IMG/VR virus record: IMGVR_UViG_3300009702_000021
Coordinates: 19,008 to 83,007 of that record
Reading direction: 5' to 3' (one strand)
Length of the DNA: 64,000 nt
DNA from: a virus
The position numbers and the translations under genes are program-made. The notes beneath the pieces were generated by a model. It was not told the origin of the DNA and did no database searches. It worked only from the letters and a program-made list of their open reading frames with translations. Shown piece after piece: positions 5,879-60,319 of the stretch (the first letter of the stretch is position 1; each line of letters opens with the position of its first letter).

Positions 5879-6069
5879 TGAGTGAAGCTGAGAAGATCGC
5901 CAGAGCATTCCATGAGGCCTACGAGCGGCTTGCTCCTGCATACAGCTACAAGACCCGAAAGGCCAGTGCCGTAGACTGGCTTGATGTACCGGAGAACAAC
6001 AGGGCCCTCATGGTGGCTACCGTTCAGGACCTCATCGACCGTGGTGATGTTGCGGTACCGCAAACATGA
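5878..6069 (+). CDS. Small phage protein, RyR-repeat-like
   Basis: IARAFHEAY...W.DVPE.NR pattern; start overlaps the upstream stop. Confidence 0.5.
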   Translation: MSEAEKIARAFHEAYERLAPAYSYKTRKASAVDWLDVPENNRALMVATVQDLIDRGDVAVPQT

Positions 6070-6178
6070 CCAGGATGGCGGACAAGATGATTCGGTTTTC
6101 GACGCAGAGACGGGGTCTGGCCCGATCTGTAGGAAGCAGTCCTCACCTTGAGTTTCTCTCGGTATTTGAGGGTCGGTC

Positions 6179-6907
6179 GTGAGCTTTCTCCTCGAGGGTC
6201 TCATCCCGGACTTCAACCTCAGGATCGACGATCCCGTCATCGTCGTCCCCGGAGAGACCGTCACTCGAGGCTGGCTCGACGTCTTCCTGAACGAGATTCT
6301 CCAGCCGTCGCTCGATGATGCCTGTTCCGAGGCGCGGCGCTGGATTGACCAACAGGACATCGACACCGCAGACTCACAGACCATCGACGCTATCCTCCGG
6401 GACCTCGGAAACCCGTTCGAGATCGCATTCAGCCTGCCACTGAACCGTCGACGCCTACTCGCCCGCGTCCTGTTTGACGTCTACAAGAGCAAGGGCACCA
6501 CGACGGGCATGGAACAAGTGATCTTCGCCCTTACCCAGATCGCGGCAACGGTGGTGGCCCCGGGGACAGTATCTGCGTTCATCCTCAATGAGGACGAGCT
6601 GGCAGATACGCCTACCGTGCCCCCTCCGGTGCCAGACGAGAGCCTGACCAGCTTCGGGTTCTTGGGCGTCTCACCGGGGTTCAACTTCTACAGCTTCCAG
6701 GTCGACGTTCCTCAGGTGCTTACCTCAGAGGAACGCGCTATCATCACGGAGATCGTGCTGCTGATGAAGCCGGCACATACACACTTCGTAGGATTCATCG
6801 AGCCGGCGGCCGGGACGTCGATTGATCACTGGGAGTTAGGGCTGAGTCACCTGACGGATCCGAGCGAGCCACTCCTCGGGGACGAAGCCGACATCCACGG
6901 GCCGTAG
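6179..6907 (+). CDS. Baseplate/tail protein I-like
   Basis: YKSKGT..G and KPAHT motifs of P2 gpI-like proteins; position after baseplate J. Confidence 0.8.
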   Translation: MSFLLEGLIPDFNLRIDDPVIVVPGETVTRGWLDVFLNEILQPSLDDACSEARRWIDQQDIDTADSQTIDAILRDLGNPFEIAFSLPLNRRRLLARVLFDVYKSKGTTTGMEQVIFALTQIAATVVAPGTVSAFILNEDELADTPTVPPPVPDESLTSFGFLGVSPGFNFYSFQVDVPQVLTSEERAIITEIVLLMKPAHTHFVGFIEPAAGTSIDHWELGLSHLTDPSEPLLGDEADIHGP

Positions 6908-6928
6908 GTCAGCAGCAGAGGTTAGACA

Positions 6929-8641
6929 ATGGATCGTAAGGACTTCTACTTCAGGCAGCGCCTCGCGCAGAGCGAGATGGACGATGCCTTCCAGGCAGCC
7001 GAGCTAGCAGATCAGCGGATCATGTCTGACGTGCTCGGTGCTGGATTCTTCATCGACGTGAGCAACACGGCGGTGGTGGTCGAGTCTAGCCCCCCGGCGC
7101 TCACCGTCAGCGCCAGTCAGCTCCTCGGTTACGACCAGCTGGGGCAGCGGCTCTCGAACCTGAGTAGCGCATTCCAGGGAGGCATTGAGATCGGGACTGC
7201 ACCGCCCTACACGGTGGACCTCTCGGTCGATGAGAACGGCGCGGCAACAACCGTAGCAGCTCCGGGTAATGAACGCATCCTGACGATCTTCGTCAAGTTC
7301 GCGCGGAGACTGCTCGACCCGAGAGTGGACGGTAACGCCACCACGGTGTTCTTCGTTCGGGATGAGTCGATCCAGTTCAACGTAGCTCAGAGCGCGGAGG
7401 CGGCAGCCGGTACGGCGGTCCCGACGCCGGCTAGGACCGACGAGCTGATCCTCGCAGACGTTACTCGGATCTTCGGTCAGACGACCTTCCTCAACGCCGA
7501 CATCGACCAGTCACGACGCCAGGACTTTGCATTCTCCATCCTGCACGGTCCAAGCCATGCGGAGAATGGTGCAGACCCTGTCCCGAACGCCGTGGCGGTC
7601 GCGGGCCAGGGTGGGCTCCTGTCGGGTGCGGACAAGATCAAGCTCGACGACATCACCTTTACCCCCGCTGGAATCGGGACACGCCTGGGAAACACCCACT
7701 ATCGCGACTTCCAGCCTACGAACATCAGCGCTCCGGCCGGGACCTCACTCGATGTCACTGGTTCCCTGGTCGGCAAGAACGCAACGGGCTCCCCGACCGT
7801 TGAGGGGGTTCTGGTCACGCCCCCGGACAACACGGTGATCATCAAGGACAGCGACCGGGACGACTTCCTCGATGCGAACGGTAACAAGGTCTATGCCCGG
7901 CTGACCGAAACAGCTGGCGTCTGGACGCTGTCGTTCGTCAGCTTCGTCGAGGGCGCTCCTGGAACCGAGACCGCGTTCGACATGACCCCGTTCGCCGGCC
8001 AGGCCGTCCTGTGGTACATCCAGGAGGCCTTCTTCATCCACAACACCCCGCCGGCAAACGCACAACGGTCGATCCCCTCCGACCAGGTCGCCGCCGAGGT
8101 CCCGACCGCGTCGACGACTGTCCAGGGCAAGGGCCTCAAAGCCAACAACCCAGGCACTCAGCCGGCCGTACCGCAGATCGGCACCATCGCTGAGATCCAG
8201 AACAACACGGTTGAGCTGGCTGGAGGTCCGTGGCACACGATCAACCTCCCGTCCGGTGGAGCGTCCAGCTCGAGCCCCGGCGTGGTTGACATCCCGGCCA
8301 GCGCTGGCCCTTCAGGTCCAACCGGGCCCACTGGGCCTACGGGACCAACTGGCCCCGCTGGTCCTGGGTTCTCTAGCGCGAGTAGCTACTCCCTGAGCCC
8401 GAACATTCCTAGCTTCCCATCCGGTGGCTCGACCATCGCGTTCCCTGCTGGGTTCCCGGTCCGGGGATTCACGGTCACCAACGCAAAGTTAAACCTCCCG
8501 ATTGGCGGTCAGGCTGATACATTCGTGATCACCAATGCAGTGATTTCCGGCTCTCAGGTCAACGTTACAGAGTCCCATACGGACTCTGGTGGCGGGAGCG
8601 CAGATATCATCGCCCAGATCGGCGTGGTCAGCTTCGGGTAG
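6929..8641 (+). CDS. Tail fibre-like protein with a short collagen-like repeat
   Basis: N-terminal MDRKDFYFRQRL...E.D anchor-type sequence; GPSGPTGPTGPTGPTGPAGP near 8306-8368. Confidence 0.7.
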   Translation: MDRKDFYFRQRLAQSEMDDAFQAAELADQRIMSDVLGAGFFIDVSNTAVVVESSPPALTVSASQLLGYDQLGQRLSNLSSAFQGGIEIGTAPPYTVDLSVDENGAATTVAAPGNERILTIFVKFARRLLDPRVDGNATTVFFVRDESIQFNVAQSAEAAAGTAVPTPARTDELILADVTRIFGQTTFLNADIDQSRRQDFAFSILHGPSHAENGADPVPNAVAVAGQGGLLSGADKIKLDDITFTPAGIGTRLGNTHYRDFQPTNISAPAGTSLDVTGSLVGKNATGSPTVEGVLVTPPDNTVIIKDSDRDDFLDANGNKVYARLTETAGVWTLSFVSFVEGAPGTETAFDMTPFAGQAVLWYIQEAFFIHNTPPANAQRSIPSDQVAAEVPTASTTVQGKGLKANNPGTQPAVPQIGTIAEIQNNTVELAGGPWHTINLPSGGASSSSPGVVDIPASAGPSGPTGPTGPTGPTGPAGPGFSSASSYSLSPNIPSFPSGGSTIAFPAGFPVRGFTVTNAKLNLPIGGQADTFVITNAVISGSQVNVTESHTDSGGGSADIIAQIGVVSFG

Positions 8642-8706
8642 GATCGCAGAGTGGGGCCTGAGTTTGCGGTACCGCAAACCGTTAGAGCACAGCAAAGGAG
8701 CACCTG

Positions 8707-9300: not shown

Positions 9301-10085
9301 GCCTGGACCTGATCGAGCGCCACAAGAAGGACCGCGCGAAGATCCTCACAGTCCTCGAGAGCGCGCCAAGCTTCCCCACCCCACAGGACATCCACTCGGT
9401 CAGCGTACCGGTTCCTCACGTCCAGTGGTGTGGACAGCAGAAGGGTGAGTATGAGGGGGAGGCCCTCAGCGAGTACGGCGATCGGACGCCGGTAAAGATG
9501 CCCTTCGAGTGGCTGACCAAGGACATCATGGTGATGAGGAACACCCTCGATCACTATCCCGGCGGACCCGGGGAGGCAATCAGGGTCGCAGAGTCGGTTA
9601 ACAACTGGCGCCGGACTGACGTGATGACGGCGGACGATAAGCCGCGGATCATCTATGACGATGAGTCTCGGAACAACGATGCTCTGTCAATCTGGCGGGG
9701 TAATGATGAGGCCCTAGTACTCCTCGAGCGTGCCTTGATGCTCGTATCGAGCGCCGCCGTGTTTTGCTACCAGACCAACAACACGTTCCTCGATGTCCGG
9801 CATGACATGGGCTACCTACTCAACCGCTATCGTGAAGGTCAGTACTTCCGGGCCCACATCGACACGGTTCGGAACGACGCCTACCTCGCCCTGCGGCGAC
9901 TGAGCCTGGTGATCTTCCTCAACTCAGTCGAGGAAGGCGGAGAGCTGCTGTTCATCCGCGACAACATCAAGATCAAGCCAGAGCCAGGCCTCGCCGTCGC
10001 CTTCCCAGCCGGGATCACGCACCCACACGAGGCGTGCGAGGTCACGAAGGGCGTCAAGTACGCGATCGTGACGTGGTACGTCTGA
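9297..10085 (+). CDS. 2OG-Fe(II) oxygenase (prolyl 4-hydroxylase-like)
   Basis: HID...LSLVIFLN..EGGEL...HEA..V.KG.KY.IVTW motifs. Confidence 0.85.
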   Translation: MSLDLIERHKKDRAKILTVLESAPSFPTPQDIHSVSVPVPHVQWCGQQKGEYEGEALSEYGDRTPVKMPFEWLTKDIMVMRNTLDHYPGGPGEAIRVAESVNNWRRTDVMTADDKPRIIYDDESRNNDALSIWRGNDEALVLLERALMLVSSAAVFCYQTNNTFLDVRHDMGYLLNRYREGQYFRAHIDTVRNDAYLALRRLSLVIFLNSVEEGGELLFIRDNIKIKPEPGLAVAFPAGITHPHEACEVTKGVKYAIVTWYV

Positions 10086-10894
10086 TGCGAGTCGTCACCA
10101 TCGCTCTGATCCTGGGCGTCCTGGTCCAGGGCTGCTGCAACCCCGATGTCAAGATGAACCTCAGCTACGGACCTATGTCGGAGAACACGTTCGATGTCTA
10201 CTCACCAGGCGAGTTCTGTCCTGGTCACGGCAAGTCGAACCGGCCGGCGATTATCGCAATCCATGGCGGGGCCTGGCGTAGCGGAGACAAGAGCTGGGGT
10301 GAGCGGGTCGCGGACCGGTTCACTCCGAACGGCTACGTGGTGTTCAGCATCAACTACCGGCTCGCGCCGGGATCACGCTGGCCCGCCCAGATCAACGACT
10401 GCGTGGCAGCCCTGCGCTACTTTCGCGGTACCGCAAACCTCTGGGGCATCGACCCGGACCGAATCGCCGCATTCGGGGTATCCGCCGGAGGCCACCTAGC
10501 CGCCATGCTGGCGCTCCGTGGGCCAGACCGGGTGAATGTAGCAGTGACTGCTGATGGGGAGGGAGACCTGGCGGTATTCGGGAGAGCCCCAATCATGGCC
10601 GACGAGACGTCGATCCTGGAGGACGTACTGGGGCCCCAGCCATTCACCCAGGCGGACCTCGTGTCACTGAGCCCAGTCCGCTACGTGCGGCCCGACGTGG
10701 CCCTCATGGTCATCCACTCAACAGGTGACCAGAACGTCTACTACGACCAGGGAGTACGCCTCCACGACGCCCTCCTGGAAGCCGGAGCAACGACGGCGTT
10801 CGAGACCGTTAACGACGACTGCCACGGAAGGTGTTGGCGAGAGCCGAAGCCACTCCGGGCGATCAAGCGATTCCTAGCTGACAACCTGAATTAG
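10085..10894 (+). CDS. Alpha/beta hydrolase (HSL-type esterase), predicted lipoprotein
   Basis: HGGAW oxyanion motif, GVSAG nucleophile elbow, catalytic D and H; N-terminal hydrophobic stretch ending LVQGC. Confidence 0.85.
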   Translation: MRVVTIALILGVLVQGCCNPDVKMNLSYGPMSENTFDVYSPGEFCPGHGKSNRPAIIAIHGGAWRSGDKSWGERVADRFTPNGYVVFSINYRLAPGSRWPAQINDCVAALRYFRGTANLWGIDPDRIAAFGVSAGGHLAAMLALRGPDRVNVAVTADGEGDLAVFGRAPIMADETSILEDVLGPQPFTQADLVSLSPVRYVRPDVALMVIHSTGDQNVYYDQGVRLHDALLEAGATTAFETVNDDCHGRCWREPKPLRAIKRFLADNLN

Positions 10895-12199: not shown

Positions 12200-12808
12200 A
12201 TGGCACTGACGTTGGAGCACGCTGACTTCGACTCGCCAGTTGAGGGCGGACGGGCTGGCCTACTGGCATGGTGGGTCAAGGACGAGGAGCGCAAGCAGCC
12301 ATTCCTCTGCATCCGCTGGGCCGACCTCCTGGTGATACGCCCTAGGGTCTCCTGGCCCCGTGACCTAGACAGGAAGGCTATCGATGGCTGGGGACGGGAC
12401 AGCCAACACCTCGCCTACGTGCCATCGATGGGGATGTGGACGATACAGACCATTGTTCCGGTTCCGGCGCTCGGAGACCTCATGAGTTTGCGGCGCCGCA
12501 AGTACCAGCGAGCCAAGCTAGGGCGCCGGGTCTTCAGGTGGTCGAAGCGACTCAGGTTCCGTGAGCTGGACCTCTGCAACCCTGGGCTGGGCTGTAGCCT
12601 CTGGATCCCCAAGAGGTCCCTGAGGCGTCTCGAGGCAGCCCTGGAGGGCGCGGTAGGGCCCCTGAAGGGAGACCTCGACGCCAGGATAGTCCAGCCGCCC
12701 TGGGACGAAGGCACGGACCTCCTGGTTGTCTGGAAGGGAGGAGATGTCAGGGCCTCGGCGTCAATTGTCCCGACCGGAGTCCTCGAGCGCAGCATGGCGG
12801 ACAGGTGA
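12200..12808 (+). CDS. Hypothetical protein
   Basis: First ORF after an AT-richer intergenic region; coupled to the SNF2 gene. Confidence 0.5.
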   Translation: MALTLEHADFDSPVEGGRAGLLAWWVKDEERKQPFLCIRWADLLVIRPRVSWPRDLDRKAIDGWGRDSQHLAYVPSMGMWTIQTIVPVPALGDLMSLRRRKYQRAKLGRRVFRWSKRLRFRELDLCNPGLGCSLWIPKRSLRRLEAALEGAVGPLKGDLDARIVQPPWDEGTDLLVVWKGGDVRASASIVPTGVLERSMADR

Positions 12809-15543
12809 TCAAGGTCACGGTCTCGCCTGCCGGCACGGTCATCTTGGAGCCTACTTCCCAGGCCGACAAGAAGACCGTAAAGGACCTGCTATACGTCGTT
12901 CGCCGGAAAGGTAAATGGGTCACGTTCTGGACCTACCTCGTAGACCTCCGTCGTGACGTACCGGCGGGACTGCTCCAGTGGCACCCAGCGGCAACAGCCA
13001 GGATCCGAGCCTTGCTCCGTCAGGTCCGGGATCTAATCCGGGGAGACGATGAGAGGATTGCCGGGCAATTCAAGCCAGACCGGAGGCCCTACGACTTCCA
13101 GATGCAGGCGATCCACGCTGGCCTGAAGGCCAAGCAGATACTTATCGCTGACGATACGGGCCTCGGGAAATTATCCCCAGTCGACACCCCCGTCCTGACT
13201 CCTCTGGGCTGGCGGGAGATCGGGTCAATCCGCAAGGGAGACAGGGTCATTGGATCGGACGGGAAGCCTACAGAGGTGACGGGAGTGTTCCCACAGGGGG
13301 TCAAGCCAAGTTACCGGGTAACGTTCTCTGACGGGTCCAGCGCAGAGGCCGGACCAGAGCACCTCTGGGCGGTTGATTACTGGAGGGGAGGTCGTACCAA
13401 GTCTCGCATCGTTATAACTACTGATGATCTACGACTGCGTCCAATCAAGGATGGACTCGACCTCTCCAAGACCAGGCTCATGGTCCCCATGCTCTCTGGT
13501 CCGGTCGAGTTCGATAAGGGCCATCCCTTGCCTATCCCTCCATATGCAATGGGTGCGTTGATCGCTAATGGGGGGCTGACTTGTGGATCGGCTGTGCTTA
13601 CCTACGGGACCAAAGACTGGGACGAGATTAGGAACCTGATCTATGAGGGATACGGCTACGAACCTATGGGGAAGATTCAGAGGTCAGCCAACACAACACG
13701 AGCCAGCCTCCTCGGGGCGATAGTCGCCGTTCGCGATCTCAAACTGGATGTGAGAAGTCAGGAAAAGTACATTCCGACCTGCTACGCCACTGCATCTCCG
13801 GTTGACAGACTGAAACTCCTGCGCGGGCTCATGGATGCAGACGGGTCGATCACCAAGAAAAGGAATCGAGTCACCTACCATACGATCTCTTACGACCTAG
13901 CCCACGACGTGGCTGGGCTCGTGCAAGGACTTGGTGGGATTGGCAGTGTTCGACGCTATGACCGGACCCATGAGGGTAAGCCGGTCGAGTATCAGGTCAG
14001 GGTCAAGATGCCACATGGCATCAACCCGTTCTCACTTAGGCGAAAAGCAGACCGATATAACCCAGGACCCAAGGCTGGCCCCTGCCGAACGATCAGGACG
14101 GTCGAGTACGTTCGTGAGGCTGAGTCGGTCTGCATTTCTGTAGCTGCCAGTGACTCGCTCTACGTGGTCAAGGACCATATCTTGACTCACAACACCATCG
14201 AGTGCCTAGGAATCATGCTGACGGCCTTTCGGGAACGGTCGATCAAGCGCGCAGTCCTGGTCGTCCCAGCCGGGCTCAAGCACCAGTGGGCCGAGGAGAT
14301 CGAAGAGTTCGCGCTCGAGGCACCGGACCCGGTGATGATCGCCGTCTCGGGAAAGAACCCACGGCGCCGGAAGCAGCTATACAAGAAGCCATGGCGGGTC
14401 CTGATCATCAACCCAGAGCTAGTAAGGATCGATGAGGACAGCCTCAGGGAAGTGGCGAATGGTGTAGGCTTCGTAGCCCTCGACGAGGCATCCTGTATCC
14501 GCAACGAGGACTCGCAGATCGCTAGGGTCATGAAGCGCCTCTGGGCCTCGGCGATCTACAAGGTGGCCCTGACGGCTACTCCTGTCGAGAACCGGCTCGC
14601 GGACCTCTGGTCGATCATCCGCTGGGTAAGCCCGAAGGCGTTCCTGAGCCGGACCTACTTCGACCGCCACTACATCGTCTGGAGGAAGCTGAGGTTCAAG
14701 GTCAAGAAGCGTACGGGACGCACGGTCACGATTACCAAGGAGGAGCCCTTGCGGTACCGCAACCTCCGGGAGGTAGAGTCAAAGATCAGGCACTGCTACA
14801 TCAGGCGCCGCGTCAGCGAAGTCGGGAAGGAGCTACCCGAGCTTGTTGTCCAGTGGGACCAGCTGCTACTCCCGAAGCGTCAGCGCGCGATCTACGACGC
14901 CGTCAAGGACAAGCTCGAGAAGAAGATCAAGGGCCTACGCGGTGTCGCCCTCCACGCGCCACTCCAGGCCCTAAGGCAGGCGTGTAACAGCACCGCCCTA
15001 GTCGAGAAGGATCGCGGGCAGAAACACGCCTCAGTCAAGATCGATCGGCTCAGGGAGCTGTTGGAGACCGAGTTCACTGGCGAACAGGTGATCGTGTTCA
15101 CCGACTACGAGCGGTTCGGCCGGATCCTCAAGCACGAGCTGAGGGCCTACCGACCCGTGACCTACACCGGGAAGATGAACCGTCGGGACCGCCAGCAGGC
15201 GATCGATGCATTCAGGCTCGGTGATCGTAGGATCCTGATCGGGACCAAGGCACTCGAGCGGGGTCATAACCTCCAGAATGCCGCGATCGTGGTGAACATC
15301 GACCTCCCGTTCAACCCGGCCTCGGTCAAGCAGCGCCTCGGCCGAGTACGCCGCCTCGGCTCCAAGCACCAGACGGTCCGGCTCTGGAACATGGTAGTCA
15401 ACGACACCGTCGAGGAGCGACTGATCATGCGCTCGCTCTACGCGAAGCGGAAGCTGTTCGAAGGGATCTTCGAGTCGGACGAGCTGACCGACGCCGACCC
15501 CCTGGAGAGGATGGTCGGAGGTAAGCTGTGGGACCTCTTGTAG
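12805..15543 (+). CDS. SNF2-family helicase/ATPase containing an intein
   Basis: DDTGLGK|T Walker A, LDEA Walker B, LTATPVEN, motif VI QRLGRVRR. Confidence 0.9.
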   Translation: MIKVTVSPAGTVILEPTSQADKKTVKDLLYVVRRKGKWVTFWTYLVDLRRDVPAGLLQWHPAATARIRALLRQVRDLIRGDDERIAGQFKPDRRPYDFQMQAIHAGLKAKQILIADDTGLGKLSPVDTPVLTPLGWREIGSIRKGDRVIGSDGKPTEVTGVFPQGVKPSYRVTFSDGSSAEAGPEHLWAVDYWRGGRTKSRIVITTDDLRLRPIKDGLDLSKTRLMVPMLSGPVEFDKGHPLPIPPYAMGALIANGGLTCGSAVLTYGTKDWDEIRNLIYEGYGYEPMGKIQRSANTTRASLLGAIVAVRDLKLDVRSQEKYIPTCYATASPVDRLKLLRGLMDADGSITKKRNRVTYHTISYDLAHDVAGLVQGLGGIGSVRRYDRTHEGKPVEYQVRVKMPHGINPFSLRRKADRYNPGPKAGPCRTIRTVEYVREAESVCISVAASDSLYVVKDHILTHNTIECLGIMLTAFRERSIKRAVLVVPAGLKHQWAEEIEEFALEAPDPVMIAVSGKNPRRRKQLYKKPWRVLIINPELVRIDEDSLREVANGVGFVALDEASCIRNEDSQIARVMKRLWASAIYKVALTATPVENRLADLWSIIRWVSPKAFLSRTYFDRHYIVWRKLRFKVKKRTGRTVTITKEEPLRYRNLREVESKIRHCYIRRRVSEVGKELPELVVQWDQLLLPKRQRAIYDAVKDKLEKKIKGLRGVALHAPLQALRQACNSTALVEKDRGQKHASVKIDRLRELLETEFTGEQVIVFTDYERFGRILKHELRAYRPVTYTGKMNRRDRQQAIDAFRLGDRRILIGTKALERGHNLQNAAIVVNIDLPFNPASVKQRLGRVRRLGSKHQTVRLWNMVVNDTVEERLIMRSLYAKRKLFEGIFESDELTDADPLERMVGGKLWDLL
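13171..14193 (+). mobile_element. Class 3-type intein with in-frame LAGLIDADG endonuclease, in the SNF2 Walker A
   Basis: Begins with Leu; EHLW, VCISV, THN followed by T; GALIANGG and LRGLMDADGS motifs. Confidence 0.9.
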
Positions 15544-21543: not shown

Positions 21544-21869
21544 GCAAGCCGATGTTTCAGAAAAGGGATCTCGACCTCATCCGAGCCGCGACCTGGGGCT
21601 GCTGGGACGCGGTGAAGACCAAAGACCACCTCGGGGACGCGGCTAGGAAGCGAGGTCTCGTAGCCAGGACCGCGACCGGTGATGCCCACGAGACAGCCTT
21701 CAAGTGGGCCCGGCAGGAGCAGAGGGCCCACGATCTGCTTGCGGTACCGCAACCCATCAACGGGACCCTGCGGGATTACATCGCCTGCACCTGCTCCTAC
21801 GACGAGAGTGAGGAGATGACGCGCCATGCTCCGCTATGCTCGATCACCAAGGCGGGGATCAACTGGTGA
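21540..21869 (+). CDS. Hypothetical protein
   Basis: TTG start after GGAGGAGG; overlaps the dnaB start. Confidence 0.45.
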   Translation: MSKPMFQKRDLDLIRAATWGCWDAVKTKDHLGDAARKRGLVARTATGDAHETAFKWARQEQRAHDLLAVPQPINGTLRDYIACTCSYDESEEMTRHAPLCSITKAGINW

Positions 21870-39232: not shown

Positions 39233-39234
39233 AT

Positions 39235-42709: not shown

Positions 42710-42871
42710 AGGCGTGAAGTCATCACGATGGTCAGGATTCAGCAGTGACCCTCCGCTCGGAGACCCACCGACATGGATGTTCTGGCTGGGAGTCACCATC
42801 GTCGTCGCCTACCTACTCATGGAGGCGCTGACCTAGCTGACCTGGCGGTATAGTCCCAGCAGGAGGAAGCA

Positions 42872-43341: not shown

Positions 43342-43405
43342 AAACCCCCACCACCACTAGCTCTCGCTCCCATCTCCTGCGTTTAATAGAGAGCAGGAGA
43401 CGAAG

Positions 43406-43738: not shown

Positions 43739-43799
43739 GCTACCTGAGGCTAGACGCCGCGGGCTACGACCTGAACATAGCCATGATCATGGTGTCCTG

Positions 43800-48237: not shown

Positions 48238-48519
48238 ATGACGAGGAATGAAATCGCTGATGCGATCTATGAGCATTCGGACGACTTGGCGAGCAAGGCC
48301 AGCGCGAAGCGCGTGGTCGCCGCGGTGTTCCAGGAGATGTTCCACGAGCTGGGCCGCAAGGGCGAGGTCAGCATCGGTGGATTCGGAAAGTTCACTACCA
48401 AGTACCGTAAGGAGAGGGAGGGACGCAACCCGATCAACGGTGAACAGATCACGATCAAGGCGAGGTACGTCCCACACTTCAAGCCGGCCTCGGTGCTGAA
48501 GGATGCCGTTAACAGCTAG
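48238..48519 (+). CDS. hup: HU-family DNA-binding protein
   Basis: V.IGGFGKF...R.GRNP.NGE.I.I.A..VP.FKP. Confidence 0.95.
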   Translation: MTRNEIADAIYEHSDDLASKASAKRVVAAVFQEMFHELGRKGEVSIGGFGKFTTKYRKEREGRNPINGEQITIKARYVPHFKPASVLKDAVNS

Positions 48520-48526
48520 GGACGAA

Positions 48527-48587
48527 CAAGCCGGGGAGGCCGGTACCTCCCCGGCTTGCGATACCGCAAAGCTTGCGATACCGCAAA
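48527..48587 (+). promoter_or_regulatory. Hairpin overlapping a tandem pair of variant palindromes
   Basis: caagccggggagg/cctccccggcttg stem, then (gcttgcgataccgcaaa)x2 running into an AGGAGG RBS. Confidence 0.7.
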
Positions 48588-49681: not shown

Positions 49682-50138
49682 CCCAAAATCACTGCTCTAC
49701 GAGTTGGTCGATGAACACGGCGAGTTCGTGCGAAAGACCAAGCATGGTGGCGGGCTCTACATCATCAACGGTCAACGCGTCGTTATCCCCGGGACAGCTG
49801 GAGACTACCGCGCATGGAACAACAGCCTCGCCGACGTCAAGCGAGCTATCCAGGAATCCGATACTGGCCAGGTGCTAGGCACCAATGAGTTGGAGGACGA
49901 AGTGAGTGGATTCTCGAAAGAACAGATGCAGGCGATGGGGATCCACGTCGGGGAGAAGCGGGTCATCGAGGTCCGACAGGTGGCTACGCTGACCCTCAAG
50001 GCTCTCTCTGGCCTACTCGGACTCTCAGGCGGACAAGATGATGGGGATGCCATGCTGGCTCTCCGGGACGTCAACGGAAACGAAGTTGAGGGACCGATCC
50101 AGTTGATCAGAACTATGAAGGAGGAGGAGGAAGAGTGA
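49674..50138 (+). CDS. Hypothetical protein with a HicA-like N-terminus
   Basis: RKTKHG...VVIPGT.GD.RA..N...DVKR. Confidence 0.4.
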   Translation: MADPKSLLYELVDEHGEFVRKTKHGGGLYIINGQRVVIPGTAGDYRAWNNSLADVKRAIQESDTGQVLGTNELEDEVSGFSKEQMQAMGIHVGEKRVIEVRQVATLTLKALSGLLGLSGGQDDGDAMLALRDVNGNEVEGPIQLIRTMKEEEEE

Positions 50139-50452
50139 TTGTGTCAGCAGAGCAGGCCACGGCAGAGAAGGGCTATCCCCACCCGGGGAATCAGATCACG
50201 TTGCCGGACGGCGGAGGGGTGATCACCCTCCAGTACGGCCACCCCGGAGAGGTCGGCCGAAACGGCTGCTTCCCGACGGACGTGATCCAGGGGCTGATCG
50301 ACAACATCAGCGTCTACCAGGACCGCGGCCACCCGATGGCTACGAGAGAGACCGCCCTGGCGATCACCAGGCTCCAGGAGGCCAAGCACTGGATCGAACA
50401 CCGCAAGAACGAACGTAGGGATCGTGGCGTTCACCAGACGGATAAGCCGTGA
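50135..50452 (+). CDS. Tad1-like anti-defence nucleotide-sponge candidate
   Basis: Q.G.....NG....DV...LID....YQ......RE.A.AIT.L.EA..W...R...R..RGV. Confidence 0.6.
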   Translation: MIVSAEQATAEKGYPHPGNQITLPDGGGVITLQYGHPGEVGRNGCFPTDVIQGLIDNISVYQDRGHPMATRETALAITRLQEAKHWIEHRKNERRDRGVHQTDKP

Positions 50453-50709: not shown

Positions 50710-51150
50710 ATGAGCGGACTTCATGCAGACCCTCCGGACTGCCGCGCCTGTGGACTCTGCTGCATCGCCTCGTCGGAGCAGGATGCATGGGCTGACGTGG
50801 AGCCCGAGGACATTCGCCGGCTCAATCAGCGCTGGGTCTCCAAGAACGTATTGTTCAGCCGGCCCATTGACTTCTTGTCTGCGTTGATCGACGGAGGGGA
50901 GCCGGTGTTCGGCGCGATCCGCACTCAGGCTCGCAAGGTCAAGCGCGGGCCACTGAAGGGCTACTCGATCTGTGGGTGCGTGGCGTTGCGCGGGTCACCG
51001 CTCGGGCAGGTTAGCTGCACGATCTACACCCGACGTCCCAGCGTCTGCAAGGACGCGCTGAGCCCCGGTGACCGGGAGTGTCTCAGCCTGCGCGAGCTGA
51101 CCCGGGCCAAGATAGAGGCCGAGGCCGATCTGAAGGTCCTGGAGAGATGA
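50710..51150 (+). CDS. YkgJ/UPF0153-like Fe-S or Zn cluster protein
   Basis: CRACGLCC...C..L...CTIY..RP.VC. Confidence 0.75.
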   Translation: MSGLHADPPDCRACGLCCIASSEQDAWADVEPEDIRRLNQRWVSKNVLFSRPIDFLSALIDGGEPVFGAIRTQARKVKRGPLKGYSICGCVALRGSPLGQVSCTIYTRRPSVCKDALSPGDRECLSLRELTRAKIEAEADLKVLER

Positions 51151-51827
51151 GATTCATCACGGATCAGGATTTCAGGGAGTACCTCGTCGACGGCATGGCC
51201 CGGACCTACCGGGACTGCCAGGCCTGTCCCCTGTCCCGTCACAGGACCAACGTCGTGCTCGGTGACGGTCCGCTCGAGCCGCTCCTGGCGATCATCGGGG
51301 AGGCACCACGGGACGGGGCCGATGACTACGGCGTACCGTTCCATGAGTCTGATGAGCCGAGCCGACTACTCCGCCGGGCCCTGGAGAAGGTCGAGATCGA
51401 CGTTGAGCGGGACGCCTGGATGACCTACGTGGTGTCCTGCCAGCCACGCGATGACCGGAAGGCGCGGCCTGAAGAACGACGCGCCTGTACGGAGCGCCTA
51501 CACGCTGAGATGCGGATCGTGAAGCCCTACGTGATCCTCTGCCTAGGCAAGGCAGCGCTGCACCACGTCTGCCTCAACATCCACCGGTCTGACTCTCTCG
51601 GAAAGCACCGCGGCCTGGTCAAGAAGCAGCACTGGCCCTACGCGTCGTTCGGAGGTTGCGGTACCGCAAACCTCAAATCCGTCTTCGCCACCTACGACCC
51701 GGCCTACCTGATCAGGATGCAGGGCAGCGCAGATCAGCGAAGGATATCTCACCGGTTCGGACAGGACCTTCGCAACGTGAAGCGCGTCTTGGACAAGGTC
51801 GCCAAGAAGGTCAGAAAGACAGGATGA
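51147..51827 (+). CDS. Uracil-DNA glycosylase, family 4-like
   Basis: CxxCxL...V.G.G...IIGEAP...C.P...C...CLGK.A...TY.PAYL. Confidence 0.8.
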   Translation: MRFITDQDFREYLVDGMARTYRDCQACPLSRHRTNVVLGDGPLEPLLAIIGEAPRDGADDYGVPFHESDEPSRLLRRALEKVEIDVERDAWMTYVVSCQPRDDRKARPEERRACTERLHAEMRIVKPYVILCLGKAALHHVCLNIHRSDSLGKHRGLVKKQHWPYASFGGCGTANLKSVFATYDPAYLIRMQGSADQRRISHRFGQDLRNVKRVLDKVAKKVRKTG

Positions 51828-53879: not shown

Positions 53880-54569
53880 ATGAGCGATGACTACAAGCAA
53901 CAGGTCGAGCTGATCAAGAAGCAGTGCAAGGTGGCGGGTCGGAAGCGCAAGAGCAAGCCGAACGTCCTGGTCTTCCGATCCTCCGGGACCGGCAGGGTCG
54001 GAGACCTGGTGACATTCGGTCCGCCCTGCGCACACGACCTGCGCTGGTCCTGTCTGCTCCTCGGGGAGGCACCGAATCGTTGGCAGGGGGAGGATCCGAT
54101 CCAGCGCGGCCGGCACACGCTCTATCGCGAGGACCTGGCCGAGCTATGCGGGCTCACGATGCCAGCGTTCTACCGCTGTTTCGTCCGAGCGAATCTCCTG
54201 AGCCGCTGGCCCGGTCGCTCCGGCCGGGGCTCAGCCTTCCCGCCCGCAGAGGCTCGTAGACGAGCCGAGAGCGTCGCACAGCACCTCGGGTCCTTCCGCA
54301 GCGTGGTCCTGGTCGGGAGACGAGTGGCGCGAGCCTTTGGGCGCTACAAGCAGGACTGGTACGCCTGGTACGACGACGGACCCCGGGTAGCGGTCGTCCC
54401 GCACCCGAGCCGGGTCAACCGCTACTGGAACGACCCGGCCAACGTCCGCGCCGCCGAGGCGTTCTTCCGACTCCTGGCCGAGGGTATCCTCGAGCCGCTC
54501 CGGGCTGAGAGTTTGCGGCGCCGCAATTTGATCGCCGCGGGGCGTGACCCCGACAAGGAGACGCGGTGA
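53880..54569 (+). CDS. Second UDG-superfamily protein
   Basis: LLGEAP...NLL...VVLVGRRVA...VPHPS..NR.WN. Confidence 0.65.
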   Translation: MSDDYKQQVELIKKQCKVAGRKRKSKPNVLVFRSSGTGRVGDLVTFGPPCAHDLRWSCLLLGEAPNRWQGEDPIQRGRHTLYREDLAELCGLTMPAFYRCFVRANLLSRWPGRSGRGSAFPPAEARRRAESVAQHLGSFRSVVLVGRRVARAFGRYKQDWYAWYDDGPRVAVVPHPSRVNRYWNDPANVRAAEAFFRLLAEGILEPLRAESLRRRNLIAAGRDPDKETR

Positions 54570-55740: not shown

Positions 55741-56601
55741 ATGAGGTCCCGCCGCGGAGGGCGCACGCTCGATTTGGTCCAGGCCGACATCCTGTCCTAC
55801 CGACCGGAGCCGGAGTCGGTCGACGTGATCATGACCTCGCCGCCCTACAAGGACGAGGACGGCTGGACGCGCGAGCTGATGTACGCCCTGGGGAAGGTGG
55901 CCCGGGAGGCCCTCCGGCCCGGAGGCCGCCTATTCGTCAACCTGGGGCAGCTGCGCGGCAACTATGACCGCCCGATGAGGTCCTGGGGTGCGATCAGGAC
56001 CTCGGGGCTCAAGCCCGGCCAGACGATCGCATGGGTCAAGAGCGCCGTCGTGCCGTCCTGGCGAGAGGCCGTCCTGGAGGCCCTCCGGGACCCGGACTGC
56101 ACGCCAGAGATGGTGAGGAAGATCCTCGAGGCGCCGGGACGGCCGACGCAGCGCGGGCACTACACGCCGATCACGCTCAAGAGCCCGACGCTCAACTACG
56201 GCTGGGAGTTCGTGTTCACGTTCTGGAAGCCACCGGAACGCGCGATGGACCGGCTCTCGATCGGCGTCCCTCACACCGACCCGAGCAACCGGGACCGCGG
56301 GACGCGGGGTAAGCACGGAGGGCTGCACTGCGCCGGAGACGTCTGGGTAATTCCCTATCGGACTACTGGCGCGAAGACCAAGAAGACGACCGCTGGGCTC
56401 CAGGGCGCCTACTCGTTCCCGGACGAGTTAGCCCGCCGGGCGATCAAGCTATGTGGCCTCGAGCCGGGCAGTACGGTGATGGACCCGTTCTGCGGAGGAG
56501 GCACGGTGCTCCGGGTAGCCCGAGAGCTAGGACACGACGCGGTAGGGATCGACCTGAACCGCGAGGCGCTGAAGGTCGCCTGGAAGACGTGGGCCGGTTA
56601 G
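55741..56601 (+). CDS. DNA methyltransferase (N4-C/N6-A, beta class)
   Basis: TSPPY catalytic motif and DPFCGGGT SAM-binding motif. Confidence 0.9.
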   Translation: MRSRRGGRTLDLVQADILSYRPEPESVDVIMTSPPYKDEDGWTRELMYALGKVAREALRPGGRLFVNLGQLRGNYDRPMRSWGAIRTSGLKPGQTIAWVKSAVVPSWREAVLEALRDPDCTPEMVRKILEAPGRPTQRGHYTPITLKSPTLNYGWEFVFTFWKPPERAMDRLSIGVPHTDPSNRDRGTRGKHGGLHCAGDVWVIPYRTTGAKTKKTTAGLQGAYSFPDELARRAIKLCGLEPGSTVMDPFCGGGTVLRVARELGHDAVGIDLNREALKVAWKTWAG

Positions 56602-56882
56602 CCGATCAGGTCTGGTGCGTAGGCCTCGAGGTGCTGGCGGTGGACGCCGGTCCGGCCGTCGACGGCATTTTCGACCGTGACCCCGAGGTCGGTCAGCCAG
56701 CGCCGGTCGGTGAGCGGGAGGTCCTCCCAGATTGGTGCCAGGTCCCCGCGGTAGAAGGAGCGGACGATAGCCCCAGCGCGGTAGTCGTCGACCTGGACGA
56801 CACGCTCGTGATCCTCGATCGAACTACCGGGACCGGGAGTGAAGGCGAACAGGGTCAGGGGGACGGTGGTCGTTGTGGTCAT
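56598..56882 (-). CDS. Hypothetical protein, the only plausible minus-strand gene
   Basis: Convergent with the methyltransferase; GC3-rich codons on the minus strand; AT-richer upstream region. Confidence 0.5.
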   Translation of the reverse strand: MTTTTTVPLTLFAFTPGPGSSIEDHERVVQVDDYRAGAIVRSFYRGDLAPIWEDLPLTDRRWLTDLGVTVENAVDGRTGVHRQHLEAYAPDLIG

Positions 56883-56969
56883 GTTAGGAACCTACTAGAT
56901 ACTGCGCTCTCAGTTCAACCGTTTAATGGATTAGGCGGAAGATGCCTAGGATACGAGAGTCTCGGTCAG

Positions 56970-57515
56970 ATGCAGAAGAAGCGAGTGAAGAAGCGGGTGA
57001 AGTCGAAGAAGGTACGGAAGGCCCTCGGAGCCGGGTTGTCAGCAATTGCTGGTCTGGATGATGACCCGGATCCGCCTGAGACCCAGAAGGCCACGCCGAA
57101 GCGTCATGAGACTCAGAAGGCTACACCGAAGCGTCGCGTAAAGCGCCGGTCGAAGGCTCCTCCCAAGCCGTTCTTCGCTACCTGCGGAGTTTGCGGTACC
57201 GCAAACGTCGAGATCGCCTACACCGAGGCTGACGTCAACTGGGAGATCGCAGGACACCAGGACCACTACGAACGGCAGGTTGGCTCCTGCTGCTCCGGCT
57301 ACGTGATCGGTCGTGACCTACTCACTGCCGCCGTCCTCCGGGAGGTCTCGAGCCGCCTCAGGGGAGTCGACAGGACACATCACAAGCTTGAGAAGCTGCG
57401 CGAGGCTGTAGGTCCCGAGCTGGGTTTAACCCCCGGGGACCCCGGGGAGGCCCAGCTGATCCGATGGGCCGAGAAGGTCGGCGTTGAGTCGGAGTGGCTG
57501 GAAGCCTATACATGA
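56970..57515 (+). CDS. Hypothetical basic protein with a Zn ribbon
   Basis: Lys-rich N-terminus, duplicated ETQKATPKR, CGVC motif. Confidence 0.5.
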   Translation: MQKKRVKKRVKSKKVRKALGAGLSAIAGLDDDPDPPETQKATPKRHETQKATPKRRVKRRSKAPPKPFFATCGVCGTANVEIAYTEADVNWEIAGHQDHYERQVGSCCSGYVIGRDLLTAAVLREVSSRLRGVDRTHHKLEKLREAVGPELGLTPGDPGEAQLIRWAEKVGVESEWLEAYT

Positions 57516-57975
57516 GGAACGACGGTATCAGGAGATGTAGGCACGGGTTCCCTGTCACGACTATCCAGGACCGGGGCTGGATAGTCCCACAGGCTCCGTC
57601 GGAGTGTTCCGTCTGCATCCAGGAAGGGTGGTCTGGACCAGCATACCGACCCGGGAAGCCAGGTGAGGCGCCTAACCCGAAGATACCGCCTCCCGTGGTC
57701 ATGGACACCTGCCGGGTGACTAAGGGCTGCATCATCGTCATAGAGCAGGGCAAGCCCCATAGCGCTCCGTGCCTGGTCGATGATGACCCGGGCACGGAGC
57801 CCGATCACGGGTTCTATTCCCTATGCTTCACGGCGACTGGAAAGATGCACGCTATCGGGTCCTACAGCCCGAACTGGTCGGTAGCACTATGTGGGCAGAA
57901 GGGAACCCACTGGGGGATCTCGAAGGAACCCGGACACATCAACTGTAAGACCTGTAAGAAGCTGAGTGGACTCCA

Positions 57976-58722
57976 ATGACTAACGAAGCACCGTGGGAGG
58001 TCCTGACCCGGCGCACTGACGTCCCAAAGCTGACGTGGCTGATGAGGTCCCTGTCCAGGCTAGCAGTCCCACACAGGCTGAACGGGAGCAGCTTCCATGC
58101 ACCGATACTCGAGACGCGGGATGCCGAGCGTGCGAACCGTGTATTGACCCCGGTCGACAACCTCCCAGACGATGACGCGGCGTTCACCTCCGAGTCCAGC
58201 GCGTGGTGGATGCAGCACCTCCACGACGAGGAGATCGGGACCACCATCGGAGCTATCGGTGTCACCGCCCACGCAATCCGAGAGGTGATCGCCCAGGAGG
58301 TCTCCTGCCGTCTAGAGGGGGCACCGGTGGACGACTGCCCGTTTGCCTGTGGCGCGGTCCCGGAGTGCCCGGCCCAGCTCTGGACGGCCTGCCATCCGAT
58401 GGTCCGGCTTGAGACGTTCTGCCTATCCCTGGCTGAGGTCCTGCCGGTCCGGGACGACATTGCACGGCACGTCCAGGAGATGGTAGACGCACTGACGAAG
58501 GAGCACGGCCAGGAGGCACTGCTGCCTTCGATGCACGTCCTGGCGACGTGGTTCACCAACGACATGCTCGAGCTAGCCGCGGGACGGCGCTGTGACTACG
58601 AGGCCATTGCTGGCCTGGTCTCCGCTGAGCTAGTCCCGACCCAGGACGGTCTGGCCCCACTGAGGTCAGAGGTCAACTTTGACGAGGCTGTCCGGCATGG
58701 GTTCGAGCCGGACCAGAACTGA
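57976..58722 (+). CDS. Hypothetical protein
   Basis: 248 aa ORF with coupled start. Confidence 0.5.
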   Translation: MTNEAPWEVLTRRTDVPKLTWLMRSLSRLAVPHRLNGSSFHAPILETRDAERANRVLTPVDNLPDDDAAFTSESSAWWMQHLHDEEIGTTIGAIGVTAHAIREVIAQEVSCRLEGAPVDDCPFACGAVPECPAQLWTACHPMVRLETFCLSLAEVLPVRDDIARHVQEMVDALTKEHGQEALLPSMHVLATWFTNDMLELAAGRRCDYEAIAGLVSAELVPTQDGLAPLRSEVNFDEAVRHGFEPDQN

Positions 58723-60319
58723 TGGTGCGTGGTGACCTGGGGCTGGTCGAATGAATGAGGGGGTGCAGGATGTCTGCCAAGCGAGTACTACGGAAACGGG
58801 TAAGGATTCTCGAGCAGGAAGTGAAGTCGTTGAAGATCCTCGCGGTATCACAGGGGGCAGTGAACCTAGTCCTGTGCCAACTACTGGTCCAGCGCGGCGC
58901 GATCCGGCCCGAGGACGCCTCGCTCGTCTCCGCAGCCTACCGGGATCCAGGACCAGACCTCACGCCGGAACAGATCATGGAGTGGGCACGGACCCAGTTC
59001 TCCAGTGCCACGCGGCCCGGATGCGACGCCGAAAGGGAGGAGTGAGGGCCGTCACCCATGAGTGCCGGCAGGACGGGTGTCTGAAGCGCACCCGTGAGGG
59101 GAAGCCGTACTGCCCGGACCACGTCTACCTGAATCCGTACGTAGCCTCGTTGTTGGCTGACATGGAACGGATCGAGGTAGAGAAGCAGGCCCGGAAGGCA
59201 GTAGCAACTGGGCACGTTGCCCACGAGATCATGGTCGTCCTCTGGTCCAACAACGGGGTTGCGAGCGTCGAGTTGATAGCGCGGACAGCGGGGCTCGAGC
59301 GTGGCCTGGTAGTCAGGACGCTCCGGGCGATGGTGTCCGAGAAGCGAGTCATCCTCAAGCGGACTAACCGCGGGAGGACGATGGCGAAGTCGAAGGAACA
59401 GGACCCGATGAGGAGGCGACGTGGCTGAGACGAGGAGGCATTGATGGCTTGGATCGGTAGGACAGGTGACGTGCTGTATGCACTCGAGCTGGCTGGCGCT
59501 GAGAAGGACGAACAGGGACGCTTCCTGACCTCGGTCCAGGAGCCCGTTGGACCCGGTGACCCTCCGGCGTTCACCTACTCGGCGTTCATGGGCCGGGGAA
59601 GACGAGACAACGACATCTTGATCGGAGACAGCTTGCGGTACCGCAAGTCCGGTCACTGGCACCACGTCGTTGACCTGCTCAGCGGGACCGGGATGTCTGG
59701 AGTAAATGTTCTCTGATGGACTATCGGTGCGAGGCACTCACCAGGCTGGTGATCGATGCCGCAACTGGGTTCGAGTTCCACGGGGTGGACCGGGACGACT
59801 GCGGGTTCTGGGTCAGGGTCAGCCGAGATACCGACGAGTCCGAGGAGTGTCGCTGGGTGATCCACCGATTCCATGAGAGGCCCTGGTATCGGATCGCCGG
59901 TAGGGAATTCCCGTTCCAGAAACCGGCCGTGCTGTGTGAGCACAGCAGCCCCGAGATCAAGGGCCTGTTCTGGGCCCCGTGGCATCCTGAGGCGGCTCTG
60001 CCAGGTGATGACTCCTGGCTCCCGATCGGATACGAGAACCTCTACGAGGCCGTAGCCCACGCACTGCGGATCTGCCAAGGAGACGTGTTGGTGCCGGATC
60101 CCCCAGACTCGGAGGAGAACGAGTAGTGGTTGACGGCGAGGGCTGCTACCGATATTCCTGTACCGCTGAACGCGACCACGTCTGTCAGGTCTGCTCATGG
60201 TGGATCTGCATCAACGTGCACCACGTCGTCACCGATCACCGCCGATGTACCGTCCGGTGGACAGACGCCGTCCTGGGCCGAGGACCGGCCTGGCTCGTAG
60301 AAGCGGCTAGGGCCTCCCG

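Follow-up and report, generated by a model that had tools for sequence, protein, structure and literature searches.

A 14-bp palindrome, TTGCGGTACCGCAA, is scattered through the 64,000 nucleotides of viral DNA analyzed here (positions 19,008 to 83,007 of IMG/VR record IMGVR_UViG_3300009702_000021; hereafter, the window), and its copies are probably operator-like sites at which a dimeric, sequence-specific DNA-binding protein encoded by the phage would act, as judged from sequence comparisons. The window contains 22 copies of the 10-bp core of this word, GCGGTACCGC, compared with a mean of 0.06 copies in 100 dinucleotide shuffles, none of which reached 22. The exact 14-mer accounts for 17 of these 22 copies. 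Beyond this excess, we observe that the copies are placed nonrandomly with respect to genes, occupy coding sequence independently of frame, are conserved at the level of DNA, turn over between related lineages, and give way to a different word in one of those lineages.

The window belongs to an 83,007-bp record with a G+C content of 62% that starts 19,007 nt before it (positions upstream of the window carry a minus sign). We called 110 genes in the record, all on one strand save for two marginal short open reading frames (ORFs). A second IMG/VR contig, IMGVR_UViG_3300009702_000035 (G001; 46,062 bp), opens with an exact reverse complement, 123 nt long, of the record's first bases. This identical overlap, together with a relative that spans the joint (L027), indicates that the two contigs are adjoining parts of a single phage of 128,946 bp or more, and we therefore rejected the idea that G001, which carries 23 sites, is an unrelated phage sharing the word. 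CheckV, rating the pieces separately, estimates their completeness at 45% for the record and 41% for G001. The joined genome contains 52 core copies at a mean spacing of about 2.4 kb. This spacing is even, with a coefficient of variation of 0.65 against 0.98 for random positions, and only about 0.1% of 5,000 random placements matched it.

The single sequencing run that contains the stretch is labeled a subsurface metagenome. The baseplate-J protein shares 25 to 29% identity with those of myoviruses of Streptomyces and Bacillus, which places the phage far from any cultured phage. A search of INPHARED gave no match to the dnaE gene as DNA, at most 30% identity for the DnaE protein, and at most 29% for the baseplate protein. 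Protein-based locus searches of IMG/VR recovered no relative through SNF2, UDG, the ParB-like protein, the DnaE core, or the ParB alignment, and a word-based protein search with UDG returned the query alone. DnaE belongs to a clade with 27 metagenomic relatives at 52 to 85% identity, below which the next matches fall to 35%. The relatives used for comparison are metagenomic fragments throughout. Six contigs (L041, L051, L067, L077, L027, and L052) match the structural region at about 70% nucleotide identity, with L041 and L051 covering window positions 1 to 8355. Lineage B comprises several contigs with about 55 to 65% protein identity that are syntenic with 30314 to 61147 and carry the same word; they come from samples Ga0206129, Ga0206126, and Ga0206123, and we treat them as one lineage by assumption. 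Lineage C, whose DnaE is 64% identical, is syntenic with 2439 to 34384. No same-word relative covers the window between 8.4 and 30 kb.

The conserved extent of the site is about 16 bp, and both halves are conserved equally. The arms are separated by 2 bp in 38 copies, and spacers of 0 to 1 or 3 to 7 bp are absent. Where the full TTGCGG...CCGCAA arms are present, the center reads TA 73 times and CG 6 times and is never anything else; both are self-complementary. The CG-center copies include two in the window (12488 and 54513) and three in lineage B (L225:5010, L223:7125, and L219:6079). Some copies extend into longer palindromes, of 26 and 30 bp in G001 and 46 bp in the window. Deviations at the outer positions are one-sided and uncompensated, as would be expected of half-site degeneracy. 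The flanks contain no directional element, no -35 or -10 boxes, and no T-tract; on the 3' side they are A-rich without a T-run.

The initial annotation had proposed that the palindrome is embedded in coding sequence in all three reading frames, and the window bears this out: its 14 copies within ORFs fall 4, 5, and 5 times in frames 0, 1, and 2. Genes confirmed by Pfam supply examples of frames 0 and 2 in the window. For frame 1, the window offers an HNH endonuclease gene (PHROG match), with an imperfect 14-mer, and an 85-aa ORF kept in a relative; beyond the window, the examples are long ORFs of 829, 469, and 1,130 aa known by gene call alone. All 12 coding copies cited in that annotation are present with their LRYR(K/N), CGTA, or AVPQ peptides in the called frames, although the one at 40702 has a mismatch. 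The host frames of SNF2, DnaE, the large DEAD-box helicase, and the uracil-DNA glycosylase (UDG) are confirmed by Pfam. For the copies at 6050, 21739, and 59633, the peptides are as described, but their coding status is doubtful: the ORFs that hold them, of 63, 105, and 90 aa, match nothing in Pfam, and the segments are missing at the syntenic place in relatives, so they may be noncoding. The copies at 18468 and 31834 do read as CGTA, but they sit in the segment taken as the DnaE intein and in the helicase intein, where ORFs nested in another frame begin 12 and 21 nt further downstream. Four further coding copies had not been listed, namely, two imperfect ones at 10423 (esterase, RGTA) and 30088 (HNH, AVPP) and the center variants at 12488 and 54513.

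Independence from frame does not by itself distinguish DNA from RNA as the target. The broader claim, of selection on the nucleic acid and not on the peptide, is supported by several kinds of comparison: the spread of the copies over all frames, rare codons at the sites, a run of identity in UDG, insertions in UDG and SNF2, the lineage specificity of the sites, and synonymous changes that keep the palindrome. The sites use codons that are uncommon in this phage, where Leu is encoded by TTG in 6% of cases, Val by GTA in 10%, Gln by CAA in 11%, Ala by GCA in 14%, and Gly by GGT in 19%. Across the proteome, the motif spells 5 of 5 occurrences of LRYR, 4 of 5 of CGTA, and 13 of 16 of AVPQ, where amino acid composition predicts 0.3 to 0.5 occurrences of each tetrapeptide. 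The UDG orthologs of the phage and lineage B share 45% amino acid identity, 56% nucleotide identity, and 45% identity at third positions, and the exact 14-mer TTGCGGTACCGCAA is the longest identical run of this gene pair. Variation at that site is suppressed, which is the outcome of a test that the initial annotation had proposed. The copy in the helicase intein (31834) is likewise present in lineage B as an identical 16-mer.

Whether the host peptides are lineage-specific insertions in loops depends on the protein. This description suits UDG and SNF2 but not DnaE or the esterase. Compared with the solved family-4 enzymes 1L9G and 1UI0, UDG has six inserted residues, CGTANL. In SNF2, PLRYRN coincides with a gap or variable linker when aligned to 1Z63 and precedes a conserved LRR block. 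FRGTAN of the esterase, in contrast, aligns without gaps to helix residues of solved esterases (VRSNAA and LKANAA), and GLRYRK of DnaE is no insertion and fits a family-wide pattern of G-hydrophobic-R/K-x-R/K. The two DnaE relatives closest to the phage, with 85 and 74% identity, are the only ones to have exact LRYRK. Lineage specificity at the DNA level is similarly mixed. Of the eight exact-core coding sites with an aligned ortholog, those at 31834 and 51656 are unchanged in the relative. At 14749 (lineage C) and 34496 (lineage B) the relative has a variant palindrome, and at -1227, 17059, 30719, and 57191 it lacks the site and reads a different peptide. Neither CG-center copy is shared with the relative examined (12488 against lineage C and 54513 against lineage B).

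Lineage C uses a different word. Its 47-kb record contains no copy of TTGCGGTACCGCAA; instead, it carries TTGGGATATCCCAA, with which TTGCGGTACCGCAA shares the design TTG-nnn-TA-nnn-CAA. Allowing either letter at two positions, we found seven sites of the TTGGGATATCCCAA type in this record, compared with none for a reversed-pattern control, and a second contig from the same sample has three exact copies and one variant. The SNF2 gene links the two words codon by codon. The phage reads TTG CGG TAC CGC AAC (LRYRN) at 14749, and lineage C reads TTG CGA TAT CGC AAA (LRYRK) in the same codons, TTGCGATATCGCAA. The two synonymous changes are mirror images of each other, keeping a perfect palindrome while creating the center GATATC. 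Given the peptide and the codon usage of lineage C, a perfect palindrome has a probability of 0.006 and the observed codon set a probability of 0.0004. A whole lineage on one new word points to a shared reader.

Sites are concentrated outside genes. In the joined genome, 24 of the 52 copies lie outside called genes or not fully within them, where 8.2% is expected (P = 4e-13), an enrichment of about 5.6-fold; in the window, 8 of 22 are intergenic and 14 are in called ORFs. Moreover, 13 of the 52 end 0 to 40 nt before a start codon, against 5.4% expected (P = 3e-6), while the other 39 do not. The typical distance of the start-proximal copies is 10 to 30 nt, just ahead of the ribosome-binding site, and lineages B and C likewise place their words 2 to 21 nt before start codons, ahead of the ribosome-binding site. 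Intergenic copies are also kept in place more often than coding ones. Such copies keep their place in relatives of about 70% nucleotide identity. Exact counterparts exist for those at window positions 2225 and 37666 and at -778, -6911, and -7461; those at 8664 and 38552 have no counterpart in the aligned relative. Coding sequence is a minority habitat of the sites, and the sites within it turn over. All copies in the window are listed in Table 1, together with the candidate genes discussed below.

Table 1. Copies of the palindrome in the window and genes considered in relation to them
Feature	Position	Strand	Location and peptide	Remarks
Exact 14-mer	2223-2236		Intergenic, 4 nt past stop of gene 687-2219	Present at matching position in L041, flanks alignable
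Exact 14-mer	6050-6063		63-aa ORF 5878-6069, AVPQ; 116 nt upstream of gene 6179	Segment absent in L051; no homolog in lineage C
Exact 14-mer	8664-8677		Intergenic, 30 nt upstream of start 8707	No counterpart in L051
TCGCGGTACCGCAA	10423-10436		Esterase gene 10085-10894, FRGTAN	
Center variant TTGCGGCGCCGCAA	12488-12501		Gene 12200-12808, LRRRK	Absent in lineage C
Exact 14-mer	14749-14762		SNF2 helicase gene 12805-15543, PLRYRN, residues 649-653	Pfam
Exact 14-mer	17059-17072		DnaE gene 15997-20637, GLRYRK, residues 355-359	Pfam; absent in lineage C
Exact 14-mer	18468-18481		DnaE segment between finger and HHH domains, residue 824, CGTA	Segment taken as DnaE intein; nested ORF 18494-19315 in another frame, weak nuclease match only (E = 0.005)
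Exact 14-mer	21739-21752		105-aa ORF 21552-21869, AVPQ	ORF absent in lineage C, where flanking orthologs are 9 nt apart
TAGCGGTACCGCAA	24954-24967		Intergenic, 6 nt past primase-like gene 24295-24948	
Exact 14-mer	27123-27136		Intergenic, 4 nt past gene 26610-27119, 27 nt before start 27163	
TTGCGGTACCGCCA	30088-30101		Near 3' end of HNH endonuclease gene 29514-30152, AVPP	PHROG match
Exact 14-mer	30719-30732		Helicase gene 30314-34384, LRYRK, residues 136-140	Pfam; lineage B has AIRQAQ without site
Exact 14-mer	31834-31847		Helicase intein, CGTA	Nested gene 31869-32753 in another frame, LAGLIDADG_2 endonuclease (E = 3e-27)
ATGCGGTACCGCAA	34496-34509		85-aa ORF 34453-34710, AVPQ	Lineage B retains ORF, with TTGCGGCGCCGCAA (AAPQ) at this position; strongest sigma-70-like promoter match of 24000-43999 lies about 70 nt upstream
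TTGCGGTACCGCTA	37664-37677		Intergenic, 19 nt upstream of start 37696	Lineage B counterpart at same place (L223:1401)
Exact 14-mer	38552-38565		Intergenic, after hairpin, 17 nt upstream of start 38582	Absent in lineage B
One-mismatch copy TTGCGGTACCTCAA	40702-40715		RecA gene 40089-42332 with LAGLIDADG intein, AVPQ intact	Synonymous CCG>CCT breaks palindrome (GCGGTACCTC)
46-bp perfect palindrome	42664-42709		Intergenic, centered on exact 14-mer 42680-42693	CG-center variant in lineage B, intergenic, upstream of ortholog of gene 42872-43165
Exact 14-mer	45535-45548		58-aa ORF 45384-45560, 22 nt upstream of start 45570	Site displaced into next gene in lineage B
Two tandem one-mismatch copies TTGCGATACCGCAA, 17 nt apart	48556-48586		Intergenic, upstream of start 48597	Single exact site in lineage B (L221, reoriented coordinate 5473)
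Exact 14-mer	51656-51669		UDG gene 51147-51827, CGTANL loop insertion	Pfam; identical in lineage B
Center variant TTGCGGCGCCGCAA	54513-54526		Near 3' end of gene 53880-54569, LRRRN	Absent in lineage B
Exact 14-mer	57191-57204		308-aa gene 56589-57515, CGTA	Lineage B has VCLERD without site
Exact 14-mer	59633-59646		90-aa ORF 59444-59716, LRYRK; 70 nt upstream of start 59716	ORF missing in lineage B, where an intergenic site precedes ortholog of gene 59716 by 18 nt
Exact 14-mer	62961-62974		Intergenic, 19 nt upstream of start 62993	
Alternative reader candidate, tandem winged-helix protein of 169 aa	26610-27119	+		HTH_20 (E = 3e-5, below curated cutoff)
Sigma-70 region-2 protein	35040-35735	+		Pfam Sigma70_r2 (E = 2e-10); PHROG 1740
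ParB/KorB/Noc-like protein, 457 aa, lead candidate reader	35737-37110	+		PHROG 3264 (E = 2e-14)
N6/N4 DNA methyltransferase	55774-56601	+		Pfam N6_N4_Mtase (E = 7e-22)
Helix-turn-helix gene with palindrome array, alternative candidate reader	G001 30269-31207	-		Sigma-region-4-like or HTH_23-like

Inteins or intein-sized inserts occur in four genes of replication or repair, namely, those for SNF2, DnaE, the helicase, and RecA. DnaE has an intein-less length in all 27 relatives of its clade, lineage C included. The RecA ortholog of lineage B, at 420 aa, also lacks the intein, and its helicase retains one.

A dimeric, phage-encoded DNA-binding protein is suggested by the symmetry of the sites, by the fixed letters that extend to what would be the loop of a hairpin, by the uncompensated one-sided deviations, by the lineage-specific word, and by the lack of any multicopy bacterial stretch among those listed in our search. 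Such a protein, once bound, would control transcription genome-wide, either as a roadblock or repressor or as the partner of a phage sigma factor. Some regulatory positions would fall within genes, at the 3' ends of upstream genes and in inteins that carry nested endonuclease genes, and other coding copies look like additional sites accommodated by tolerant loops or by positions whose residues were already compatible. Selection would hold the exact DNA word within genes despite the cost of rare codons, and related phages would have retuned the system to a different word of shared design.

Our leading candidate for the reader, still a tentative one, is the ParB/KorB/Noc-like protein, with two other helix-turn-helix proteins sharing the remaining probability. 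The protein matches the Noc structure 7nfu in the PDB over residues 144 to 284 (E = 5e-4), of which residues 244 to 284 correspond to the helix-turn-helix of Noc. Its Atlas structure aligns with ParB_N plus HTH_ParB/KorB clusters at TM values of 0.52 to 0.62, and the ten matches listed are all ParB_N. It is 55 to 63% identical in lineage B. The gene begins 2 nt after the end of the sigma-70 region-2 gene. Fusions of a ParB fold with Sigma70 are described in PMC12704722, and the adjacent sigma and ParB-like genes resemble a split form of such fusions. Two "ParB-like" matches in G001 turned out to be proteins with a GGHQRL nuclease domain and were rejected as orthologs of the window protein.

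The first of the other two candidates, the tandem winged-helix protein, has a weak homolog in lineage C (25% identity; pairwise E = 8e-4), and the word of that lineage lies 117 nt after the gene. The second is the helix-turn-helix gene of G001, whose Pro/Gly/Asp-rich tail is encoded by an array of four palindromes, spaced 60, 60, and 69 nt apart and each read as AVPQ; the array marks the meeting point of two gene blocks of opposite orientation. Its ortholog in lineage B (L220 2836-3636), for which we estimate about 85% identity over residues 20 to 180, has two copies in the AVPQ frame. In lineage C, the ortholog is cut by the contig end before its helix-turn-helix. An HU-like protein is also encoded in the window, at 48238 to 48519.

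Several points weigh against an operator-like role or against the lead candidate. Half of the testable coding sites are unconserved, so some may be neutral or weakly selected. Genes were called with our own codon-usage caller and no standard gene finder, which is a weak point of the method. Between 24000 and 43999, sigma-70-like promoters number 3, compared with 2.3 in shuffles, and are not enriched near sites. A site 10 to 30 nt before a start codon also leaves little room for a promoter, which would suit an RNA-level element as well. Independent half-sites predict about 11 mixed centers, and none is seen; correction of quasi-palindromes by template switching is one possible cause. As for the ParB-like protein, it is not matched by Pfam ParB_N (PF02195) at E values of 0.01 or below, and its box II is degenerate, reading DGLRRLS (GGLHRLT in lineage B) where CTP binding calls for GERRxR. 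No ParB-like ortholog was recovered from phages with the other motif, the contigs of lineage C stopping short of this gene.

The alternative that survives best, although we consider it unlikely, is an element that acts in RNA. The transcript of the site, UUGCGGUACCGCAA, would form a small hairpin 5' of the ribosome-binding site and could serve in processing, as a 5' stabilizer, or as the site of a translational regulator. The window genes all lie on one strand, so every copy is transcribed, and the start-proximal copies, in lineages B and C alike, precede the Shine-Dalgarno sequence. The words of both lineages also keep hairpin potential, at -4 to -10 kcal/mol for 14- to 18-mers, and the copies that grow into 26-, 30-, and 46-bp palindromes are in keeping with a structured transcript. 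The typical stem, however, is just 4 to 6 bp; the letters of stem and loop are fixed without covariation, and outer deviations are left uncompensated. Many copies lie in the middle of genes, distant from starts, and the four-copy array sits where opposed gene blocks converge. A scan against Rfam returned two tRNAs only and no family matching the palindrome. Nor does the palindrome match an intrinsic terminator, taken as a G+C-rich hairpin followed by a U-tract. Terminator-like matches number 13 between 24000 and 43999, which is no excess over the 9.4 in shuffles, and none of them coincides with a site.

It is considerably less probable that the palindrome has no function for the phage and propagates itself, or arises by mutation, through gene conversion or template switching that also perfects imperfect palindromes. 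The symmetry of the changes would follow naturally, since centers are TA or CG but never mixed and two mirror positions changed together in the SNF2 gene of lineage C. The UDG and SNF2 sites each resemble insertions of about 18 nt, several copies lie in lineage-specific inserts of about 300 bp, and coding sites turn over fast. Such spread does not account for the strongly nonrandom placement in intergenic and start-proximal positions, for sites that persist in place across about 30 to 45% divergence where neutral DNA has diverged, or for the switch of a whole lineage to one new word. The body of a mobile element around the word was rejected, as nothing is shared beyond about 16 bp.

A signal for replication or packaging, with the array at the helix-turn-helix gene as origin or pac site and the dispersed copies as secondary, is very improbable. 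The four-copy array, with its spacing of about 60 bp, and its two-copy counterpart in lineage B suit this explanation. Some fifty dispersed copies would be unexpected for an origin or a pac site, though, their start-proximal placement would go unexplained, and the array gene is parted from the putative large terminase gene by an 8-kb inverted block.

We give still less credence to an epigenetic or restriction target, in which the centers GGTACC and GGCGCC (GGYRCC) would be read by the N6/N4 methyltransferase of the phage or by restriction-modification of the host. The phage does encode the methyltransferase (Table 1), and both centers are what we take to be classical type II palindromes. Yet conservation extends over 14 to 16 bp, well beyond a hexamer, the center in lineage C is GATATC, and phages usually avoid restriction sites rather than accumulate them. 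Lineage B keeps the word without a methyltransferase ortholog at the syntenic place, and we rejected a link to that gene on this ground. Equally remote is a host-derived signal, whether a site for a host protein or the phage's mirror of an iterated palindrome of the host chromosome (HIP1-like): the source is a subsurface metagenome, but the 80 bacterial stretches listed, of at least 120, come from unrelated taxa with one copy each and none multicopy, and a related phage from another sample with a different word is more easily explained by a phage-borne reader.

It is conceivable, although doubtful, that the palindromes make up a lattice, spread over the whole genome, at which a ParB-type protein is loaded and acts together with the adjacent sigma factor, their words recoded between lineages. 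The spacing of about 2.4 kb would match the sliding range of a clamp, so that one protein could switch or insulate transcription across the genome. Reader and sites would then coevolve, from TTGCGGTACCGCAA to TTGGGATATCCCAA, even within genes by mirror-image synonymous changes, and co-occurring phages would possess mutually orthogonal regulatory codes. The sites also offer a clean case in which selection at the DNA level overrides codon preference and shapes protein loops, the UDG insertion being the clearest. They also carry a warning for annotation, as short peptides that recur in phage proteins (LRYRK, CGTA, and AVPQ) can be by-products of nucleic acid signals.

Three other features of the phage deserve mention. 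Two adjacent tRNA genes lie at 39161 to 39318, one for tRNA-Ile(UAU) and the other 84 nt long; ARAGORN reads a four-letter anticodon (aaat) in the latter, and Rfam scores it at 41 bits as a tRNA. A weak match to the Acb2/Tad1 hairpin domain of anti-defense sponge proteins is found at 50135 to 50452 (E = 0.005, below the cutoff). Finally, TTAGAGAAACCGAAACCGAAAG, at contig positions 18969 to 18990 (19 to 40 nt before the window), is near-identical across three relatives of about 70% identity, L077 and L067 among them; it lies downstream of the intergenic copy at -6911, and a structural gene may have a conserved leader or promoter there.

Known systems resemble the palindromes in part. Noc of Bacillus has a 14-bp palindromic site with about 70 dispersed copies. 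The likeness lies in a ParB-family protein without ParA and a 14-bp palindrome dispersed over the replicon, and the Noc structure 7nfu is the best solved match of our candidate; Noc differs in being a chromosomal regulator of cell division with a membrane-targeting helix. Plasmid RK2 carries 12 operator sites for KorB, and the phage has 52 copies. As described in the part of PMC11790492 that concerns it, KorB of RK2 is a ParB-family clamp that is loaded at the palindromic OB operator and silences promoters up to 1.5 kb away. It thereby acts on near and distant promoters alike, and the sites of the phage are on average about 2.4 kb apart. A ParB-family helix-turn-helix protein and a short multicopy palindromic operator on one replicon are common to both cases, whereas KorB, in that description, is a proven CTPase clamp with KorA as partner and our candidate has a degenerate box II.

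Among mycobacteriophages, the L5 repressor gp71 is the reader of the Cluster A stoperators, and the start-associated sequences of Cluster K are asymmetric. The sections of PMC4351075 on these repeats describe the stoperators as many short sites across the genome, mostly intergenic, at which one phage protein blocks transcription, much as we propose here. The same sections present them as asymmetric, oriented with transcription, and belonging to temperate phages (PMC4351075). Our sites are perfect palindromes with symmetric flanks, and family searches of about 70 of the roughly 110 called genes of the window's contig found no integrase or immunity repressor. The Cluster K sequences, in those sections, share with our sites a repeated short word immediately upstream of the starts of a subset of genes (PMC4351075), but called genes enclose about half of our copies, many of them distant from starts.

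The closest published analog is the palindrome of the Cluster O mycobacteriophages, and dispersed phage-specific palindromes have thus been in print since 2015 without an assigned function. In the passages of Cresawn et al. (2015; PMC4351075) devoted to it, this 17-bp repeat, TGTTCGGNNNCCGAACA, has 34 copies in Corndog, of which 14 are intergenic, 10 lie near the 5' ends of genes, and 10 to 11 are inside genes. According to these passages, it is absent from the host, two other mycobacterial genomes, and other mycobacteriophages, with two copies in one further Mycobacterium genome (PMC4351075). Its positions are mostly common to relatives; where a copy is lost, a single change accounts for it, synonymous in some cases. 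A dimeric regulator is suggested by the authors, who note that a protein with a parB-like domain is encoded and leave the function unknown (PMC4351075). Later genome announcements repeat the observation, and the literature matches listed include no functional study. The likeness consists in an invariant inverted repeat in tens of copies, both intergenic and coding, that relatives share in place. The two repeats differ in form, TGTTCGG-N3-CCGAACA with 7-bp arms and a 3-bp A/T spacer in the published description compared with TTGCGG-TA/CG-CCGCAA and a 2-bp center here. They differ also in placement, as the Cluster O repeat is, per its authors, not closely linked to translation starts (PMC4351075), to which 13 of the 52 copies here are. 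Cluster O phages are unrelated siphoviruses, and those passages report no switch of word between lineages (PMC4351075). What is new relative to the published cases is just such a switch between related lineages, with coding sites following it. Two related lineages that spell different words in the same SNF2 codons constitute a natural experiment beyond Cluster O and a route to the identity of the reader, which we expect to be the protein whose recognition helix changes with the word.

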